A stretch of DNA of 6,007 nt from a virus: the IMG/VR virus record IMGVR_UViG_3300013939_000005, positions 1-6,007 of that record. One strand, written 5' to 3'. The translations under genes were made by a program, and so were the position numbers. Below the pieces are notes generated by a model. It did no database searches and was not told the origin of the DNA. It saw only the letters and a program-made list of their open reading frames with translations. Numbering within the stretch: position 1 is the stretch's first letter; each line of letters starts with the position of its first letter. This document shows positions 1-6,007 of the stretch, piece by piece.

Positions 1-78
1 GGGAGGGCGCATGAGCGCCCTCTCTTCCATCGCACTGGGAATCGCGCTGCTGCTGGTCTGCGCCACCCTCATTGCCGC
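1..78. repeat. Left copy of an exact 78-nt terminal redundancy (identical to 5930-6007)
   Basis: Base-by-base comparison shows gggagggcgcatgagcgccctctcttcc...ccctcattgccgc at both ends. The repeat is cut off by the window edge, so its true extent is unknown. The period is 5929 bp. Confidence 0.97.
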
Positions 79-208
79 CGCGCTCTGGACCATCGGCGAA
101 GTCATCGACCGATGGAACACTAAGCGCGAAAGGGCGCATCAAGAATTCGTCGCGCAGTGCGCCGCAACGGCAGCGCTGCACAAGGCTCAGCGGGAGCTTT
201 CCGAATGA
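11..208 (+). CDS. Small membrane protein, 65 aa, function unknown (N-terminal TM helix, charged C-terminal tail)
   Basis: GGAGG at 2-6 sits 4 nt upstream of ATG 11. The ATG overlaps the stop of the upstream ORF (ATGA, seen at 5940-5943 in the second copy). Hydrophobic stretch SALSSIALGIALLLVCATLIAAALW is followed by a Lys/Arg/Glu-rich tail. Stop TGA 206-208 overlaps the next ATG. Confidence 0.6.
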   Translation: MSALSSIALGIALLLVCATLIAAALWTIGEVIDRWNTKRERAHQEFVAQCAATAALHKAQRELSE

Positions 209-348
209 GCATTGAAATCGTGCAGTGGGAGGGTGGCGTCTTTCTGGTGGTTATCCGCGAAGCTGGCGAGCAGCAGCGGCGCGTGTTCGTGCCATCCGTG
301 GTAGATGGACTGGACTTCTGCAAGCGCTATCTCCGGGGCGATGCATGA
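205..348 (+). CDS. Hypothetical small protein, 47 aa
   Basis: ATG 205 forms an ATGA overlap with the previous stop. GGGAG at 192-196 lies 8 nt upstream. Third-position GC is about 70% by hand count. Stop 346-348 overlaps the next ATG. The ORF-track start at 157 is rejected in favour of the coupled start. Confidence 0.5.
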   Translation: MSIEIVQWEGGVFLVVIREAGEQQRRVFVPSVVDGLDFCKRYLRGDA

Positions 349-530
349 GCGAACTGCGCTACTGCATTCAGCGCCTCGATGATGGCGTGTGGGTCCACAA
401 ATCGAACTACGGCTCAGACCTCGATACCTGCATGCAGAACGCACGCTGGTTTCAGGCCATGGGTCGTGGTCGTGTTCAATACCGCGTCGTCGCTCAGCTG
501 GGCGATGCGGTTTCGGTGTTGCTGCAATGA
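345..530 (+). CDS. Hypothetical small protein, 61 aa
   Basis: ATG 345 forms an ATGA overlap with the upstream stop, and stop 528-530 overlaps the Rep ATG at 527. It is in frame with track ORF 225-530, but the coupled internal start is preferred. No recognisable motif. Confidence 0.5.
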   Translation: MSELRYCIQRLDDGVWVHKSNYGSDLDTCMQNARWFQAMGRGRVQYRVVAQLGDAVSVLLQ

Positions 531-1282
531 CGTTCGCGGTCGCCACCAGTCAAGCGAGCGCAGCGAGCGCTGGGCTTGTCCATACTGGAACAACTCAGAT
601 GAGAGGGTTCCGCTTCAAGAAAACTATCTCGGATGCCGAACAGCGGGGGAAACGCCTCCGCCGCATGAAACAGAACGTCATTACCTCGGCACGCTTGAAC
701 GTCGAGGAAGCCCAGCAAGGCGGATTCCGTGGCCGCTGGGCGATGCTCACGCTGACCTACCGCGAGGACGTGCGGTGGATAGCGAACCAAGTAGCCGCGC
801 TGCTCGATTGCCTGCGCAAGTATTGCGCCCGCTGCGGCTTCAAAGCCCGTTACGTGTGGGTGCTGGAACTGACGAAGCGGGGCAGGCCGCATTACCACGT
901 GTTGGTGTGGCTCCCGAAAGGTCGCAGCCTGCCCAAGCCCGACAAGCAAGGCTGGTGGAAGCACGGCCTGACCCGCATCGAGTGGGCACGCAACGCCATT
1001 GGCTATCTCGCCAAGTACGCCAGCAAGGGCGATGACTACGACTTGCGCACGCTGCCCGGTGGCGCGCGCCTGTCAGGCAATGGCGGATTGTCCGCGAAAT
1101 CCCGCGTTGAACTGCGTTGGTGGAAGTTGCCCACGTGGGTCCGCGAGGTCTGGAACGAAATCACAAACGTGGGCCGCACCAAAGGCGGCTACGTCAATCG
1201 CGACACCGGCGAATTCCTCGCCAGCCGGTATGCAGTCGCATTCGTTGGCGGGGCACTGTGTCTATACGAGGTCACACCATGA
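527..1282 (+). CDS. Rolling-circle replication initiator (HUH endonuclease, pII-like), about 251 aa
   Basis: HUH motif H-Y-H in RGRPHYHVLVWLP (codons at 890-898). Two-tyrosine motif YLAKYASK (1004-1027) resembles the phiX174 gpA / P2 gpA-type YxxKYxxK active site. It sits immediately upstream of the ssDNA-binding gene. The start is uncertain: ATG 527 (ATGA coupling) is preferred, ATG 599 (MRGFRFKK) is possible, and the track start at 389 is unlikely. Confidence 0.85.
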   Translation: MTFAVATSQASAASAGLVHTGTTQMRGFRFKKTISDAEQRGKRLRRMKQNVITSARLNVEEAQQGGFRGRWAMLTLTYREDVRWIANQVAALLDCLRKYCARCGFKARYVWVLELTKRGRPHYHVLVWLPKGRSLPKPDKQGWWKHGLTRIEWARNAIGYLAKYASKGDDYDLRTLPGGARLSGNGGLSAKSRVELRWWKLPTWVREVWNEITNVGRTKGGYVNRDTGEFLASRYAVAFVGGALCLYEVTP

Positions 1283-1548
1283 GCAATGAAATCATCATCG
1301 AAGTGCGTTCCACCGAACTGACCCGCGTCAAGCCATACAACAACAAAATGTACGGGACGCAGGTCGCCGCCATCTACAACGGCTCCGACTTCCCGCTGCC
1401 CATCAATGTCAACGTGGAGCAGGGGCACGAGTACCCGAAGGGCCGTTACACCATCGACCCGCGCAGCTTCACCCGCGATGACATGGGCAACCTGAAAATC
1501 AAGGGCCTCAAGCTGTTGCCGCTGGGCGGCACGTCGGCCAAGAGCTAA
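1279..1548 (+). CDS. ssDNA-binding protein (pV-like), 89 aa
   Basis: ATGA overlap with the Rep stop. GAGGT at 1268-1272 lies 6 nt upstream. Size and position directly after Rep are typical of inovirus gene V. The protein is small, soluble, and rich in Tyr, Lys and Arg (MSNEIIIEVRSTELTRVKPYNNKMYGTQ...). The call rests on synteny and size, not a diagnostic motif. Confidence 0.65.
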   Translation: MSNEIIIEVRSTELTRVKPYNNKMYGTQVAAIYNGSDFPLPINVNVEQGHEYPKGRYTIDPRSFTRDDMGNLKIKGLKLLPLGGTSAKS

Positions 1549-1551
1549 GCG

Positions 1552-1758
1552 GTGGCCATTCCGCAGGCAGCCCACGTCCTTTACTGCGTCGAGGTCGATG
1601 CAGCCACGCAGACATGTCTGCAACAGGCGTGGCTGCCTGCGCCATCTCTGCTGCCACCTCTTTCCGCGTCGGAGGTGGCGGCGCTTCTCGGTGTTACGGC
1701 TTATGCGTTTGCCATGGCATGGGGAGGCAAATTTCTCGGACGCGTTATCAGAGACTAA
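1552..1758 (+). CDS. Small membrane protein, 68 aa, possible minor virion protein (pVII/pIX position)
   Basis: The only available start is GTG 1552, one codon after the ssb stop and in the same frame. AAGAG at 1540-1544 is a weak SD. The C-terminus SEVAALLGVTAYAFAMAWGGKFLGRVIRD has coat-like acidic / hydrophobic / basic organisation. Stop TAA 1756-1758 lies inside the coat-gene SD. Confidence 0.4.
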   Translation: MAIPQAAHVLYCVEVDAATQTCLQQAWLPAPSLLPPLSASEVAALLGVTAYAFAMAWGGKFLGRVIRD

Positions 1759-1769
1759 GGAGTCGTGTA

Positions 1770-1901
1770 ATGGATGTTGCAGAAGTCGTCACGCTGATTG
1801 CGGGCATCGGTACCGCCGTCGGCCTCATCGGTGCCGCCAAGCTCACCCCCGCTGCCATTTCGGTGGGCTGGAAGTGGGCCAAGGGTGCCATCTTCGGCTA
1901 A
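1770..1901 (+). CDS. Major coat protein (pVIII-like, Pf3-type without a cleavable leader), 43 aa
   Basis: Strong SD AAGGAG (1757-1762) lies 7 nt upstream. Sequence MDVAEVVTLIAGIGTAVGLIGAAKLTPAAISVGWKWAKGAIFG has an acidic N-terminus, a hydrophobic core and a basic/aromatic C-terminus (WKWAK) for DNA contact. A strong terminator follows immediately, as for gene VIII in Ff phages. Confidence 0.8.
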   Translation: MDVAEVVTLIAGIGTAVGLIGAAKLTPAAISVGWKWAKGAIFG

Positions 1902-1915
1902 GCCGGGGCGGGTGA

Positions 1916-1941
1916 GGGGGCCTTCGGGCCCCCTTTTTCTT
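1916..1941 (+). terminator. Rho-independent terminator after the major coat gene
   Basis: Perfect 7-bp GC stem GGGGGCC (1916-1922) / GGCCCCC (1927-1933) with a TTCG tetraloop, followed by TTTTTCTT (1934-1941). Confidence 0.85.
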
Positions 1942-1962
1942 CGGGAGAAATGAAATGTTGGG

Positions 1963-3213
1963 ATGGTACGCGTTATGTGTTGGATTAATGGCGCTCTACA
2001 TTGTGTTCGGCGACTGAGGTCTGCACTTCTCGGGTTGTTGGTGGTGTTAGTGGTGGCATCTGCACACGGTCAGTCTCCGGGAAGCGGAAAAATTGATGTT
2101 ACGCCGCAAACCAATCGATGGGTTAGAGCATCTGGCGGCGGTTTCGAGTCGCATGCATCCGTCATGGCGCGCTATCAGCGTGCGGCCGATGCAGCTGCAC
2201 AGACAACCTATCACCGCGTTCCGGTACAAACATCGGCCGCAACGCTCGGCAGGCTTGCGAAAGGCGGATTGCGTCGCGTAGCGGGGCCGGTGGGCTGGTA
2301 TTTCGTGCTGAAGGATTTGGTAGATGGCGCTGGCTGGGTGATTGACGAATTAGGTCAGCAAGTGATGGATGGTCCGGCGCGAGACCAAGACACCGCGCCT
2401 GCGGGTACACGCATGTGGTGTTCGACCGGTGGGCATGGCTGCGCGCTTACACCGCAAAGCTATTTGAGTTCAGGTCTGTGCACGGCACAGGTTCGCTATA
2501 CCTATCCGAATAACGCGGGCTTGTCCTGCACTTCTATTCTGTCGTGTTCCGGTGACCCGTTGCGTTGTAACTTCCAGCTTTCCGACGGCGGTTCTCACGC
2601 CAAATCTACAACGTTAGTGTCCACGCAGACGCCGGTTTATGGAACAGGGCATGTCCCTCAACCCGTGACAGACCAGCAGCTAGGGGACTTGGTGAAGGGG
2701 AGCCCCGAGGTTGTAAATGCGGTTCTGACGGATCCTCAGACGGGCGCGCCGATTCAGTATCCGGAATTGGTTGATGCCATGAACAACTTGCGTAAGGAAT
2801 TGGAGCAGCAGCGCGGCGCGGAGCCGGGCCCCGACATTGTTCCGAACCCGGATTATGAGAATCAGCCGCAGCCGAGTGAAACGGATTGGCCGGGGTTCTG
2901 TGATTGGGCAACGAAGGTGTGCGAACTGGTGGATTGGGTGATGGAGCCGGAAGAGCCCGAGACGGAAAAGCCTGAGGTTCCGTGGGAAGAGTCAGAGGTT
3001 CAGCCATCAACGTGGACTAGTGGATTGGGCGGCGGTGCATGTCCTGCGCCAATTGGTTTCTCGATTGCTATTGGCGGGCAGACTGCAAATCCTGAGTTCG
3101 ATATGGAGGGAATTTGCTCGTTCGGCTCGATGATTCGGCCACTAGTAATTGCGATTGCGACGGTGGTTGCGGCGTACATTCTTGGCGGCATAAGGAGCAG
3201 CAAAGATGCGTAG
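1963..3213 (+). CDS. Adsorption / minor coat protein (pIII-like), 416 aa
   Basis: N-terminal signal peptide (RRLRSALLGLLVVLVVASAHG/QSP). Cys-rich domain with 6 Cys in aa 153-202 (nt 2419-2568). Pro/Glu-rich linker (nt about 2818-3009, e.g. PEEPETEKPEVPWEESEVQP). C-terminal membrane anchor IRPLVIAIATVVAAYILGG followed by basic RSSKDA. Positioned between coat and pVI-like genes. Start is ATG 1963 or ATG 1975. Confidence 0.75.
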   Translation: MVRVMCWINGALHCVRRLRSALLGLLVVLVVASAHGQSPGSGKIDVTPQTNRWVRASGGGFESHASVMARYQRAADAAAQTTYHRVPVQTSAATLGRLAKGGLRRVAGPVGWYFVLKDLVDGAGWVIDELGQQVMDGPARDQDTAPAGTRMWCSTGGHGCALTPQSYLSSGLCTAQVRYTYPNNAGLSCTSILSCSGDPLRCNFQLSDGGSHAKSTTLVSTQTPVYGTGHVPQPVTDQQLGDLVKGSPEVVNAVLTDPQTGAPIQYPELVDAMNNLRKELEQQRGAEPGPDIVPNPDYENQPQPSETDWPGFCDWATKVCELVDWVMEPEEPETEKPEVPWEESEVQPSTWTSGLGGGACPAPIGFSIAIGGQTANPEFDMEGICSFGSMIRPLVIAIATVVAAYILGGIRSSKDA

Positions 3214-3493
3214 TTGGCTGGCTAATCTTTTGCGCAACCTCTTCGGTGATGCGGTCGCCCGAATTTTCGGCGGTGCGGGTCTGGCGCTGGTGACTTCGGC
3301 GGTCATGATTCCCGTGGTGACAACCGCACTCAATCAAGCAGCGGCAGCCTTCGGCGGAATCCCGGCAGATATTCTCAATGTCGTGCTTCTCTTCGGGTTC
3401 GGTGAAGCCATGTCCATCATTGGCGCGGCCATGCTTACGCGCTTGGCGGTCCAGTCGGCCAATGTCGGCGTTCGGAGGGCCACGCGTCCATGA
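3206..3493 (+). CDS. Minor coat / membrane protein (pVI-like), 95 aa
   Basis: Strong SD AAGGAG (3192-3197) lies 8 nt upstream. There is an 8-nt overlap with the pIII stop. Multiple hydrophobic segments are present (GGAGLALVTSAVMIPVVTTAL, ILNVVLLFGFGEAMSIIGAAML). The position between pIII and the Zot-like gene is the canonical gene VI slot. The stop overlaps the next ATG. Confidence 0.7.
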   Translation: MRSWLANLLRNLFGDAVARIFGGAGLALVTSAVMIPVVTTALNQAAAAFGGIPADILNVVLLFGFGEAMSIIGAAMLTRLAVQSANVGVRRATRP

Positions 3494-4614
3494 TGTTCTT
3501 GATTACCGGGCAACCGGGTAACGGCAAAACTCTGCGCGCCATGTGGGTGATGCAGCAGGAATACGAGCGCAATGCGGCGGCAGTGAAGGCGGGCAAGGAG
3601 CAGTCCCGTCGTTTCTTCTCTAACATTGCTGGTTCAACGGTAGATGAAAATCCGGACGCGTTCCCATGGGTGGAACGGATGCCGGAAGATAATGACTGGA
3701 CGAAACTGCCGGACGGTAGTTTTGTCGTCTACGACGAATGCCACGCTGATGGACAGACGCCGGAGCTTGCGCGCTATGGTGTCTTGTTTCCTTCCACAGG
3801 CAAGCCGGGCGAATCCAGTGACCCGCGAATCCGCGCTATGTCAACGCATCGGCATCGCGGGTTCGACATGGTTTTCATGACGCAATACCCGAACAAGGTT
3901 CATCACAATGTGCGTTCACTGCTGGGTTCGCACACACACATGAATCGTTCGATGGGGCTGGCGGCGGCTGGCGTGCTGACGTGGAGCCGCGTCCAGATTG
4001 ACCCGTATGACGAAAGGCAGCGCGAGAAAGCGGAAGAGGAAATCTGGAAGTATCCCAAGGAGCTATACAAACGCTTTCTGTCATCCAGCCTGCACACGTC
4101 GGCACACAAGTTTAAGGTGCCAAAAAAGGTGTGGGGCGCGCTGTCTACGCTGGTTGCAATCGTGTTTGTCTGCTGGGGTGTGTGGTCGTGGGCGCAGAGC
4201 CGAATTAAGACGGGCGAACGTGCGCCAGAGCAGGCGCGAGGGGAGGCCAGCTTGCTGGCCCCCGCGCCTGCTGCTTCTGTTGAGGAAATTCCTATGGCTG
4301 TAGGGGTAGGGCACGCTACTCAAATCAATACGGTTGCAGTGCCAACACTGGCGGGTGTGGTGGCATCGGAGCGCGGGTGTCGCGCGTTCAACACGGAGGG
4401 ATTTCAAATCGACATGAGCGAGCGCGATTGTCGCCGACTGCTGGAGGCGCCGCTACCGTTCAATGTGTTTCATGAGTTCAAGGCGGCTACGGGTAGTGCC
4501 AGACCGGAGGATTCCAAGTCTGCAAGCGCACCGGTAACCATGTCGTTACCGGGAAACATCACCCATGTCGGCGAAACGGCGAACGTTGTAGAGGCTCCGG
4601 AACCCCACTTTTAA
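3490..4614 (+). CDS. zot: Assembly ATPase, Zot / pI family, 374 aa
   Basis: N-terminal Walker A GQPGNGKT (3508-3531) and Walker B FVVYDECH (3721-3744). Single TM helix WGALSTLVAIVFVCWGVWSWA (about 4132-4194). A roughly 140-aa periplasmic C-terminal domain follows. ATGA overlap with the upstream gene. This architecture is characteristic of inovirus pI / zonula occludens toxin-like proteins. Confidence 0.9.
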   Translation: MMFLITGQPGNGKTLRAMWVMQQEYERNAAAVKAGKEQSRRFFSNIAGSTVDENPDAFPWVERMPEDNDWTKLPDGSFVVYDECHADGQTPELARYGVLFPSTGKPGESSDPRIRAMSTHRHRGFDMVFMTQYPNKVHHNVRSLLGSHTHMNRSMGLAAAGVLTWSRVQIDPYDERQREKAEEEIWKYPKELYKRFLSSSLHTSAHKFKVPKKVWGALSTLVAIVFVCWGVWSWAQSRIKTGERAPEQARGEASLLAPAPAASVEEIPMAVGVGHATQINTVAVPTLAGVVASERGCRAFNTEGFQIDMSERDCRRLLEAPLPFNVFHEFKAATGSARPEDSKSASAPVTMSLPGNITHVGETANVVEAPEPHF

Positions 4615-4662
4615 ATCGCGCAGGTTCGTGGTATCAGAGCGTCCAGTAACCAAGGGCTAAGC

Positions 4663-4860
4663 ATGGACGTTTCTTTCGTGGTGCGTGGTTTTATCGGGTT
4701 GGCGGTGGCTGTCGTGGTGGTTGGCGCGATTGCCGTCATTGTTGCCAAGATGTTCGGCGGTGTGAACAAGCGGCGGCAGAAGGCGGTGGCGCAATTGGTG
4801 TTTGCCGTGGGCATAGTTGCATTCCTGTTCTTCGTGTTCCCGAAGCTACTAGGGGTGTAG
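4663..4860 (+). CDS. Small two-TM membrane protein, 65 aa, function unknown
   Basis: AAGGG (4652-4656) lies 6 nt upstream of ATG 4663. Two hydrophobic helices (FVVRGFIGLAVAVVVVGAIAVIVA and VAQLVFAVGIVAFLFFVF) are separated by the basic loop KMFGGVNKRRQKA. It is the last gene of the + operon, in the post-zot slot. Confidence 0.55.
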   Translation: MDVSFVVRGFIGLAVAVVVVGAIAVIVAKMFGGVNKRRQKAVAQLVFAVGIVAFLFFVFPKLLGV

Positions 4861-4875
4861 GGGCATAGCCCCTAC
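4857..4875. terminator. Perfect 8-bp hairpin between convergent genes; possible bidirectional terminator or ssDNA structural signal
   Basis: GTAGGGGC (4857-4864), loop ATA, GCCCCTAC (4868-4875). It overlaps the TAG stop at 4858-4860 and lies 10 nt from the stop of the minus-strand gene (4885). There is no clear U-tract on either side, so confidence as a terminator is modest. Confidence 0.4.
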
Positions 4876-4884
4876 GGTGACGCT

Positions 4885-5166
4885 TTACCCGGCACGTCTC
4901 CTGGGCATGGGCATGTCGGGCCGGATATGGTCCCGGAGTCGGGTGACGTTGCTGCCACCTTGGATAACCTGCGCCTCACCGCGCTGGACCTGCTCCATCA
5001 ACAGACGCCATTCCCGAGCGATGTTGCAGGTCAGTGACCACCACCGCATGTCCTCGGGATACAGCGTGTAGTTCTCCGGCGTCCACATGTGTCCAGCCTG
5101 AAAACCGAAACCGGCCCAAGGGCCGGTTAGTTCGGTACGGTCGTGAGGGTCAATCAGCTTCTTCAT
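4885..5166 (-). CDS. Trp-rich hypothetical phage protein, 93 aa (possibly a DUF3653-like phage protein; recalled from memory, unverified)
   Basis: GGAGG on the minus strand (complement of 5174-5178) lies 7 nt upstream of the ATG (5166-5164). ATGA overlap with the stop of the upstream repressor-like gene. High third-position GC. Motif LTGPWAGFGFQAGHMWTPENYTLYPEDMRWWSL. Preferred over the antisense + ORF 4877-5071. Confidence 0.6.
   Translation of the reverse strand: MKKLIDPHDRTELTGPWAGFGFQAGHMWTPENYTLYPEDMRWWSLTCNIAREWRLLMEQVQRGEAQVIQGGSNVTRLRDHIRPDMPMPRRRAG
5109..5128. repeat. Perfect 9-bp inverted repeat (hairpin) inside the 93-aa gene
   Basis: AACCGGCCC (5109-5117), AA, GGGCCGGTT (5120-5128). 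On the minus strand it encodes the GPWAG motif. Confidence 0.9.
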
Positions 5167-5645
5167 AGCGGTGCCTCCGTGGCGGCATGGGAAAGCCGCC
5201 TGGGAGGCAAGAGCCGGTCCAACAGCAGTCGCAGCAGGGACCAGTAGTACTGCCAGACCCGCCGAACCGCCCCCATAGCCAATTTCGCATAATGCATAGA
5301 ACGCGCCTGCTCAAAGTCGCCTGTGGCCGCATCAGCGTGTAAGGGCAGGGCAACCAGCACCCCCAGCAATAGGGAGGCAGCGGTTGCGGCCAGCTTGCGC
5401 CATAAGGCCTTCTCTCGCGGGCTGTGCGCGGTTTCCTGTAAGTGGCTGGCAACCGTTGCCCGAATGTCCCAGCCAAGGGCCTGCGCGCAGCCAATTACCG
5501 CGTCCACGTCCATTGACCGAATCCCGGTGACGTAGTTGTTAAACCGGGGTGGCTGTAACCCTGCGAGCCGCGCAAGTCCTGCCTGTGATTCGTTCGGGTA
5601 CTTCTCTTGGAGGGCCTGAATTAGCCGTTCCTGCGTGCTCATCAT
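5163..5645 (-). CDS. HTH DNA-binding regulator (putative immunity repressor) with a central hydrophobic/TM segment, about 160 aa
   Basis: The N-terminus QERLIQALQEKYPNESQAGLARLAGLQPPRFNNYVTG fits a helix-turn-helix (about 5526-5588). Hydrophobic segment AATAASLLLGVLVALPL lies at about 5340-5393. It is divergent from the main promoter and adjacent to repeated operator-like motifs. SD AGGTG (complement of 5649-5653) favours the second Met (5642) as the start. The opposite-strand repressor of about 160-165 aa matches my recollection of Cf1-type Xanthomonas phages, which I could not verify. Confidence 0.75.
   Translation of the reverse strand: MMSTQERLIQALQEKYPNESQAGLARLAGLQPPRFNNYVTGIRSMDVDAVIGCAQALGWDIRATVASHLQETAHSPREKALWRKLAATAASLLLGVLVALPLHADAATGDFEQARSMHYAKLAMGAVRRVWQYYWSLLRLLLDRLLPPRRLSHAATEAPL
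5282..5298 (-). other. dif-like candidate attP core (XerC-arm plus central-region look-alike)
   Basis: The + strand reads ATTTCGCATAA-TGCATA. Compared with E. coli dif GGTGCGCATAA-TGTATA-TTATGTTAAAT, it matches 8/11 in the XerC arm and 5/6 in the central region. The XerD arm is not conserved (2/11). The reverse complement TATGCATTATGCGAA differs at one base from the 15-nt attP/dif core TATACATTATGCGAA that I recall for Xanthomonas filamentous phages (Cf1c, phiLf, XacF1). That recollection needs verification. Confidence 0.5.
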
Positions 5646-5710
5646 TCACACCTGTTGACATTGCATTCACGGGTGTTTATACAGTGCCCAGCATTCACGC
5701 GTGTGAATGC
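5643..5710. promoter_or_regulatory. Operator-like repeats: four copies of CATTCAC around the promoter
   Basis: CATTCAC occurs at 5643-5649 (overlapping the repressor start codons), 5664-5670 (promoter spacer) and 5692-5698. It occurs inverted as GTGAATG at 5703-5709. The last two form the palindrome GCATTCAC-gcgt-GTGAATGC (5691-5710) just downstream of the -10 element. Confidence 0.55.
5655..5683 (+). promoter_or_regulatory. Near-consensus sigma70 promoter for the main + strand operon
   Basis: TTGACA (5655-5660), a 17-nt spacer, then TATACA (5678-5683). It lies in the only sizeable intergenic region, oriented toward the first + ORF at 5776. Confidence 0.7.
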
Positions 5711-5711
5711 G

Positions 5712-5744
5712 CCCCTCCCCGGTCGCCCTTGGCCGGGGCAGGGG
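5712..5744. repeat. GC-rich imperfect hairpin (11 bp, one bulged C) in the leader of the + operon
   Basis: CCCCTCCCCGG (5712-5722) pairs with CCGGGG-C-AGGGG (5733-5744). The loop is TCGCCCTTGG. No T-tract follows. Confidence 0.8.
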
Positions 5745-5748
5745 ACTT

Positions 5749-5764
5749 CAAGGGCACAAGGGCA
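5749..5764. repeat. Perfect tandem 8-mer CAAGGGCA x2, part of a GGGCA-rich repeat cluster
   Basis: CAAGGGCA occurs at 5749-5756 and 5757-5764. GGGCAGGG also occurs at 5736-5743 and 5760-5767. Confidence 0.9.
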
Positions 5765-5775
5765 GGGAACTACCC

Positions 5776-5943
5776 ATGACGCTGGACCAGTGGAATGCGC
5801 TTCAACCGCGCATTGTCGATGTGCAACGCCTCGCCCTGCTGTTCGCCGAACTCGGCGAAAGCAAGGTCAGCTACCTGCTAATGCAGGCCGCCACGCGCGC
5901 CGCCCGCATCAAGCCGGTGAAGGAAGCAGGGGAGGGCGCATGA
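5776..5943 (+). CDS. Small protein in the Cro position, 55 aa, possible HTH
   Basis: First ORF downstream of the promoter. AGGGA (5764-5768) lies 7 nt upstream of ATG 5776. The segment LFAELGESKVSYLLMQAATR loosely fits an HTH pattern. The stop overlaps the next ATG (ATGA 5940-5943). The track start ATG 5707 lies in the operator palindrome without an SD and is considered less likely. Confidence 0.5.
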   Translation: MTLDQWNALQPRIVDVQRLALLFAELGESKVSYLLMQAATRAARIKPVKEAGEGA

Positions 5944-6007
5944 GCGCCCTCTCTTCCATCGCACTGGGAATCGCGCTGCTGCTGGTCTGCGCCACCCTCA
6001 TTGCCGC
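5930..6007. repeat. Right copy of the exact 78-nt terminal redundancy (identical to 1-78)
   Basis: Same comparison as for the left copy. This fits circular-genome wrap-around or the start of a second tandem unit. Confidence 0.97.
5940..6007 (+). CDS. Second (partial) copy of the 65-aa membrane protein gene seen at 11-208
   Basis: Identical to nt 11-78 and truncated by the window end. It shows that the gene at 11 is translationally coupled to 5776-5943 across the circular junction. Confidence 0.6.
   Translation, partial: MSALSSIALGIALLLVCATLIA

Follow-up and report, generated by a model that had tools for sequence, protein, structure and literature searches.

Evidence that an uncultured filamentous phage of a Pseudoxanthomonas-like bacterium integrates at dif through a site inside its regulator gene

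Results

The window, by which we mean the whole 6007-base stretch analyzed here, contains an inovirus core module at positions 599..4614 on the plus strand, recognized by Pfam and PHROG matches to Rep (a REP_ORF2-G2P replication protein, 599-1282), a helix-destabilising ssDNA-binding protein (SSB, 1279-1548), the major coat protein (Inovirus coat B protein, 1770-1901), a pIII-like protein (1963-3213), a pVI-like protein (DUF2523, 3206-3493), and Zot/pI (3490-4614), all encoded on that strand. The minus strand carries a gene for a 93-aa DUF3653 protein (4885..5166) and a gene for a 160-aa HTH/DUF3693 regulator (5163..5645), a putative repressor or immunity protein. No recombinase gene was found when all ORFs of the 5929-bp phage unit were scanned against Pfam and PHROG, in agreement with the original prediction, and the unit encodes only Rep, SSB, coat, pIII-like, pVI-like, Zot, DUF3653, and DUF3693 proteins together with small ORFs. 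The closest cultured relative of the phage is Stenotrophomonas phage phiSHP2. Megablast of the window against phage records gave no match, nor did tblastn of the regulator at E<=1e-3, and the connection to known phages came solely via Pfam DUF3693 and the DUF3653 gene.

The exact regulator protein was located on a 78-kb JGI metagenome contig (L001), where the phage is present as two exact head-to-tail copies within chromosomal DNA (L001 4419-16293). The window equals L001 9639-15645 read on the opposite strand; it spans the internal phage-phage junction and is therefore not an episomal genome. Bases 1-78 recur at 5930..6007 on the plus strand as a 100% direct repeat with a spacing of 5929, the window being longer than the 5929-bp unit of the tandem array; what had been taken for a phage genome is a slice of a chromosomal tandem prophage. 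The exact 5.9-kb tandem pair might have been assembled from a mix of episomal and integrated reads, but both host junctions are independent of that. The internal junction of the array retains one intact attP and one intact operon of the regulator and the 93-aa gene, which is the copy in the window.

The regulator matches Pfam DUF3693 at 35.1 bits (cut-off 21) and phrog_638, a transcriptional regulator family. Its layout consists of an HTH, a hydrophobic segment at about residues 85-103 (hydropathy peak, mean 1.96), a linker at residues 116-122 encoded by the attP, and a Trp-rich tail. The Pfam DUF3693 match stops at the site, covering residues 70-116 here and 64-121 in XacF1 ORF12, which belongs to the same Pfam family, as do phiSHP2 ORF150 and XaF13 ORF10. 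An operator-like cluster of three direct and one inverted copies of CATTCAC lies at 5643..5709, where 4/4 of the window matches to this heptamer fall, with 0.99 expected window-wide, and we consider these repeats likely operators. The cluster adjoins the regulator start in the divergent intergenic region, its inverted copy forms CATTCACGCGTGTGAATG, and a promoter-like pair, TTGACA-17 nt-TATACA, is found among the repeats. A consensus promoter scan gave nothing useful in the intergenic region, and it also missed the obvious promoter region there.

The start of the 93-aa ORF overlaps the regulator stop by 4 nt (ATGA). The encoded protein matches phrog_2188 (E=2.8e-30) and is a homologue of phiLf-UK PSB15 and of the DUF3653 domain of XafT, being 47-62% identical to its counterparts in XacF1, Cf1c, phiLf, XaF13, and phiSHP2. 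It scores 18 bits against Pfam DUF3653, under the cut-off of 22.4, and 30.5 bits against the NCBIfam VC1465 Xer recombination activation factor family, under the cut-off of 70; relatives 55-58% identical to it exceed the Pfam DUF3653 cut-off. DUF3653 is the XerD-activating domain of TLC-phi XafT and occurs in all dif-integrated Xanthomonadales phages (PMC6744903). PSB15 of phiLf-UK is characterized by LTG, WAGFXF, and TPE motifs, binds the packaging signal, and is needed for virion assembly and not for integration (bioRxiv 2024.03.19.585677). These N-terminal motifs are present in the window protein, with WAGFXF as WAGFGF (...TELTGPWAGFGFQAGHMWTPE...). We considered the 93-aa protein as an XafT-like activator of XerD and downgraded this candidate in view of the sub-threshold family scores and of the dispensability of phiLf-UK PSB15 for integration; as PSB15 is the closest studied homologue, an activator step like that of TLC-phi is not established. 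We treat the 93-aa protein as a PSB15-type DUF3653 protein with putative packaging-signal binding. Inside its gene, a GC-rich hairpin with a T-run (AACCGGCCC-TTGG-GGCCGGTT TCGGTTTT) occurs on the minus strand at window 5109-5128, exactly over the conserved LTGPWAGFGF codons, and was called terminator-like by the scan.

Within the regulator gene, ATTTCGCATAATGCATA at 5282-5298 on the plus strand is the sole window match even when up to 3 mismatches are allowed (0.01 expected from shuffles). It begins at the third base of codon 116 and ends with the first base of codon 122 in the 160-aa ORF at 5163-5645 (residues S-M-H-Y-A-K-L), and so lies inside the HTH protein, as had been noticed. The motif comprises an XerC-binding arm, ATTTCGCATAA (5282..5292, plus strand), with 11/11 identity to the host dif XerC arm rebuilt from the prophage junctions, and a central (crossover) region, TGCATA (5293..5298, plus strand), identical to the host dif centre in contigs L001, L025, L026, and L027. 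The XerD-side arm that follows, GAACGCGCCTG (5299..5309, plus strand), is degenerate, with 8/11 mismatches against the host XerD arm TTATGTAAAAG, and the reading of the motif as an XerC arm and centre with a decayed XerD side was thereby upheld. XerD-arm degeneracy of a like kind is present in XacF1, Cf1c, phiLf, and XaF13, and the XerC arm is also found in dif sites of Xanthomonas, Stenotrophomonas, and Lysobacteraceae. As previously stated, the reverse complement of the motif, TATGCATTATGCGAA, differs at a single base from the published core of Xanthomonas phages, TATACATTATGCGAA, which was reported for phiLf-type phages and which we found in XacF1, Cf1c, phiLf, and XaF13.

BLAST of the window against L001 returned three pieces. 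One covers window 1-6007 at 100%; the left copy matches window 1-5298 to L001 9716-4419 at 100% and ends exactly at the last base of the motif; the right end matches window 5237-6007 at 98%, the second copy and the right end running on through the site. In window orientation, junction A (phage to host) reads ...CCATAGCCA ATTTCGCATAA TGCATA TTATGTAAAAG CATGG..., a regenerated complete 28-bp dif, and junction B (host to phage) reads ...TGGTAATA ATTTCGCATAA TGCATA GAACGCGCCTG... The attP and the host dif show 17/17 identity over the XerC arm and central region, and both junctions lie at the motif, exactly at 5282-5298 and not in the intergenic region at 5646-5775 that had been named as another possible place. 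The XerC arm plus the central region is precisely what attP and the host dif have in common, and the crossover occurs inside that stretch. The proposal of a dif-like attP at this position, resembling the dif of its host, is thus confirmed by the single match in the window, the shared XerC arm and TGCATA, and the two junctions. On its host side, junction B is bordered by 45 nt resembling phage 5237-5281. We considered an alignment artefact here and rejected it, since tail remnants of this sort also lie next to dif in L025, L026, and L027.

The two ends of the prophage each hold a part of the regulator gene. At the left end in L001, the last 39 codons and the 93-aa gene adjoin the regenerated dif, detached from the promoter region; the tail-coding segment (codons 122-160 and the stop, 5163..5281, minus strand) is the part moved to the opposite prophage end by integration. 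At the right end, the regulator is native through residue 122 and then continues into host DNA, giving a 178-aa chimera ORF (L001 15930-16466). The loss of roughly 40 codons and the fusion to host sequence, which had been deduced from the position of the motif, are therefore what the contig contains.

An identical 28-bp dif with its host flank was found in the related host contig L025, and the same-species contigs L026 and L027 were recovered through the neighboring DUF2306 gene. The host is Pseudoxanthomonas-like, the neighboring DUF2306 protein being 74% identical to a P. beigongshangi protein. L026 has a different inovirus at the same dif and L027 has a remnant only, both with the TGCATA centre. 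Relatives in Xanthomonas translucens, Stenotrophomonas rhizophila, and Lysobacteraceae MAGs have TGTATA, as in the dif of their own hosts; the TGCATA of the window matches its host dif in the same way, and therefore the one-base "mismatch" is an adaptation to the host site. A search of metagenome contigs for the exact 28-bp host dif returned one contig, which bears an element remnant and is no empty site. L027 is not a truly empty attB either: its XerD arm is a variant, and what is left of an older element lies on the XerC side.

The inovirus of L026 (1466-8707; Rep_trans, G7P, and a 432-aa Zot) has an attP of opposite polarity, AAGCGGGTCAA-TGCATA-TTATGTTCAAA, inside a DUF3693 regulator. Diverged remnants of regulator tails lie on the XerC-side flank of dif (L001 16294-16337, L025 1243-1317, L026 1416-1465, and L027 2932-2981); every strain examined had remnants, and partial DUF3653 genes accompany some of them. 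The dif neighborhood is a graveyard of older Xer-exploiting elements.

A homologue search with the regulator returned 53 homologues, which were aligned, giving 54 family members with the window. The N-terminal 110 residues are well conserved in this 54-member alignment. The core was found at the same linker in 42/54 members, where it reads as xHYAK, Y(A/T)LCE, (Y/C)IMRN, MYIM, CILC, or VYYV, and most of the others have near variants. These six peptide readings are the dif core translated in two orientations and three frames, and such variety of embedding at one linker indicates that the constraint is on the DNA and not on the peptide. Conservation beyond what the protein demands, one of the checks proposed with the original prediction, is thus what the family displays. 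The tail pattern (a Trp/Tyr-rich helix, L..RPKP, and LEA) was recognized in ~20/31 full-length members by eye and in 12/31 by a crude regex. It is kept regardless of the frame or orientation of the core, and the tail is therefore under protein-level selection in many members.

A check at the DNA level of 19 loci revealed two classes of site at the same gene position. Type 1 sites are antisense, with a perfect XerC arm and centre and a degenerate XerD arm (the window, L007, L009, L014, and L021), and type 2 sites are sense, with a degenerate XerC arm and a good XerD arm (L008, L010-L013, L015-L020, and L022-L024). L007 and L009 are single prophages with a full dif on one side and a degenerate site in a truncated regulator on the other. 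Many related loci have a full dif on the wrong strand. This seemed at odds with the logic of integrative mobile elements exploiting Xer (IMEX) and was resolved by the opposite-polarity attP class of Cf2, phiSHP2, and SMA7. Where the host of a type 2 prophage has an XerD arm reading TTATGTAA..., a TAA stop codon in that arm closes the truncated regulator exactly within the site (...GMYIM-stop); this ending occurs at L010 10333-10360 and in proteins P0019, P0023, P0024, P0027, P0029, and P0034.

Discussion

We conclude, with a probability of nearly nine in ten, that the motif serves as the functional attP by which an uncultured filamentous phage of 5.9 kb integrates at the dif of a Pseudoxanthomonas-like bacterium via Xer, in an architecture that is standard for Xanthomonadales inoviruses of the XacF1, Cf1c, and phiLf type. 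With no recombinase of its own and integration at dif, the phage is an IMEX. Hijacking of XerCD, which the original prediction had put forward, is the expected route for a phage without an integrase, and by analogy with related phages we consider it well supported. The attP is a perfect host XerC arm and 6-bp centre followed by a degenerate XerD arm, and its recombination with dif yields two sites, a crippled hybrid on one side and an intact dif on the other; with an intact dif remaining on one side, the host would retain dimer resolution. Catalysis by XerC/XerD is presumed from precedent (XacF1, Cf2, and the phiLf-UK annotation), and the integration/excision equilibrium of XacF1 suggests that the reaction may be reversible. 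Homology and published studies of related phages are the basis of all functional statements made here. Integration cuts the regulator gene after codon 121/122 and moves the conserved tail and the overlapping DUF3653 (PSB15-like) gene to the far prophage end, off the promoter; the order of strand exchange and any regulatory effect of the split are inferred.

The alternative that the motif is a chance dif-like sequence, or one kept only by the demands of the protein, with the true site elsewhere (for example, in the intergenic region at 5646-5775), is extremely improbable, given that the junctions fall exactly at a motif with a chance expectation of 0.01, that the core is kept in three frames and both orientations, and that its centre co-varies with the host dif.

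The location of the site in a regulator gene, which had been called unusual, proved to be already on record. In work published in 2017, the attP of XacF1 was placed within ORF12, which is split upon integration, and integration was ascribed to XerC/D (PMC5666396). When the 5′ part of ORF12 was deleted, integration was delayed and the prophage was unstable (PMC5666396). GenBank annotations place the site within the regulator CDS in XaF13, in Cf2 (5499-5512, Cf2_10), and in phiLf-UK (5393-5407, a 'DUF3693 family' HTH gene), and in the phiSMA7 provirus record ORF150 is joined across the record ends. Cf2 is reportedly the subject of a paper titled 'XerD-dependent integration'. An attP within the regulator is thus a documented norm of Xanthomonas and Stenotrophomonas inoviruses, and neither the location nor the two polarities are new.

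Like the phage of the window, XacF1 and Cf1c (Coriovirus) and phiLf and phiLf-UK (Lophivirus) are inoviruses without an integrase whose attP consists of the dif XerC arm and centre with a degenerate XerD arm. In these phages, as here, the attP is antisense in the 3′ part of a minus-strand HTH/DUF3693 gene, just upstream of an overlapping DUF3653 gene, and the regulator ORF is split on integration; XaF13 likewise has the core in the 3′ part of such a minus-strand regulator gene. However, nucleotide similarity between the window and XacF1, Cf1c, and phiLf is limited to ~140 nt in the DUF3653 gene, the regulator being too diverged for tblastn, the centre is TGCATA instead of the TGTATA of these phages, and the replication protein and host genus differ. 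Cf2, phiSHP2, and phiSMA7 (type 2) share the regulator family, the linker position, and the splitting of the regulator by integration, but their sites are sense and of the opposite polarity, the XerD arm being good and the XerC arm degenerate. TLC-phi, a Vibrio cholerae IMEX with XafT, also has a degenerate XerD arm and a centre fully identical to dif and encodes a DUF3653 protein. In TLC-phi, XafT is an HTH-DUF3653 fusion that activates XerD, whereas in the window the HTH and DUF3653 are on separate ORFs, and the 93-aa protein, unlike XafT, scores below the family cut-offs and has as its nearest studied homologue PSB15, which is unneeded for integration. In lambda sib retroregulation, the position of attP relative to a transcription unit causes expression to differ between the integrated and excised states; the parallel with the window is one of concept only, as the components and the recombinase are unrelated and a regulatory use of the split is hypothetical here.

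Why the site sits inside the gene can be explained in two ways, which are not mutually exclusive. The placement may be permissive and historical, a reading to which we give somewhat less than an even chance: any peptide is tolerated in the linker following the hydrophobic segment, which gives a compact genome room for its attP, and the site persists as a mosaic boundary for Xer-mediated module swaps between co-resident elements and not as a sensor. Six peptide readings of one core at the same position favor this explanation, as do the older element tail remnants flanking dif in L001, L025, L026, and L027. It is also favored by L028, which has another replication and structural backbone and shares window 5283-5767 at 87.6%, the homology stopping exactly at the site, and by L014, a frame-mismatched hybrid at the site. 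What it leaves unexplained is why the site is absent from the intergenic regions of these phages and why the tail is conserved downstream of the site.

The placement could instead be functional, which we hold as a tentative possibility. Here the attP, lying between the promoter/HTH half and the tail with the PSB15-like gene, would form an integration-state switch, full-length regulator and assembly factor requiring the excised or tandem state. In line with such a switch, the DUF3653 start overlaps or adjoins the regulator stop in the window, XacF1, Cf1c, Cf2, and phiLf-UK, and the attP is always ~80-120 nt upstream of that start. Whichever of the six embedding modes is used, many full-length members conserve the protein sequence of the tail; PSB15 is required by phiLf-UK for assembling virions (bioRxiv 2024.03.19.585677), phiLf-UK lysogens release ~1e4 PFU/ml compared with ~1e11 after infection (~1e7-fold lower), and deletion of the 5′ part of XacF1 ORF12 destabilises the prophage (PMC5666396). 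The switch is harder to reconcile with L014, where the tail is out of frame with the N-terminal part at the site, so that in-frame continuity is not always kept, with the poor conservation of the XacF1 tail, and with the source locus, a tandem array that has one intact operon. An internal DUF3653 promoter would also speak against it; none came up in a consensus scan, which overlooked the obvious intergenic promoter region too. The integration-state sensor put forward in the original prediction is a hypothesis, and at the source locus a tandem copy retains one intact regulator gene. That the position of attP has been selected, with integration uncoupling the HTH/membrane half from the Trp-rich tail and the translationally coupled PSB15-like factor, efficient assembly being licensed only after excision or in tandem, and the site serving in addition as a breakpoint for immunity-module swaps between unrelated inovirus backbones, we consider rather unlikely.

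Although no new kind of system is revealed, the locus provides a demonstration, from sequence only, of an Xer-exploiting phage at its host dif, with both junctions, the regenerated dif, and a centre tuned to the host, and it adds an uncultured Pseudoxanthomonas-like host to those in which the XacF1/Cf/phiLf architecture is known. The comparison across the family indicates that the site, and not the peptide, is selected at a fixed point of the regulator, with six modes of embedding, a tail conserved in many members, and mosaic boundaries at the site. In addition, the published but unexplained phenotype of XacF1 ORF12 becomes directly testable.

Two of the related loci suggest exchanges at the site between different phages. 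In L028, the match to window 5283-5767 (L028 5944-6428, in a Rep_trans inovirus) takes in only the regulator N-terminal part and the operator region, suggesting an immunity cassette exchanged at an Xer site. In L014 (8290-8490), the N-terminal part enters the core as GIYIMRN, and the conserved tail RRLRWIWLWIVSCLPQRPPKDDEIQA lies in the other frame (IHYAK...), overlapping the DUF3653 start; this site looks like a hybrid formed between two different phages.

A tyrosine recombinase that is not XerC or XerD by score lies a few kb from dif on the XerC side (L001 17532-18662) and is 74% identical to an equivalently placed Stenotrophomonas rhizophila gene (L010 2611-3474). Defence genes occur around the dif-side recombinase, namely, BrxR and a DncV-like NTase in L001, AbiTii in L026, and AIPR in L027.
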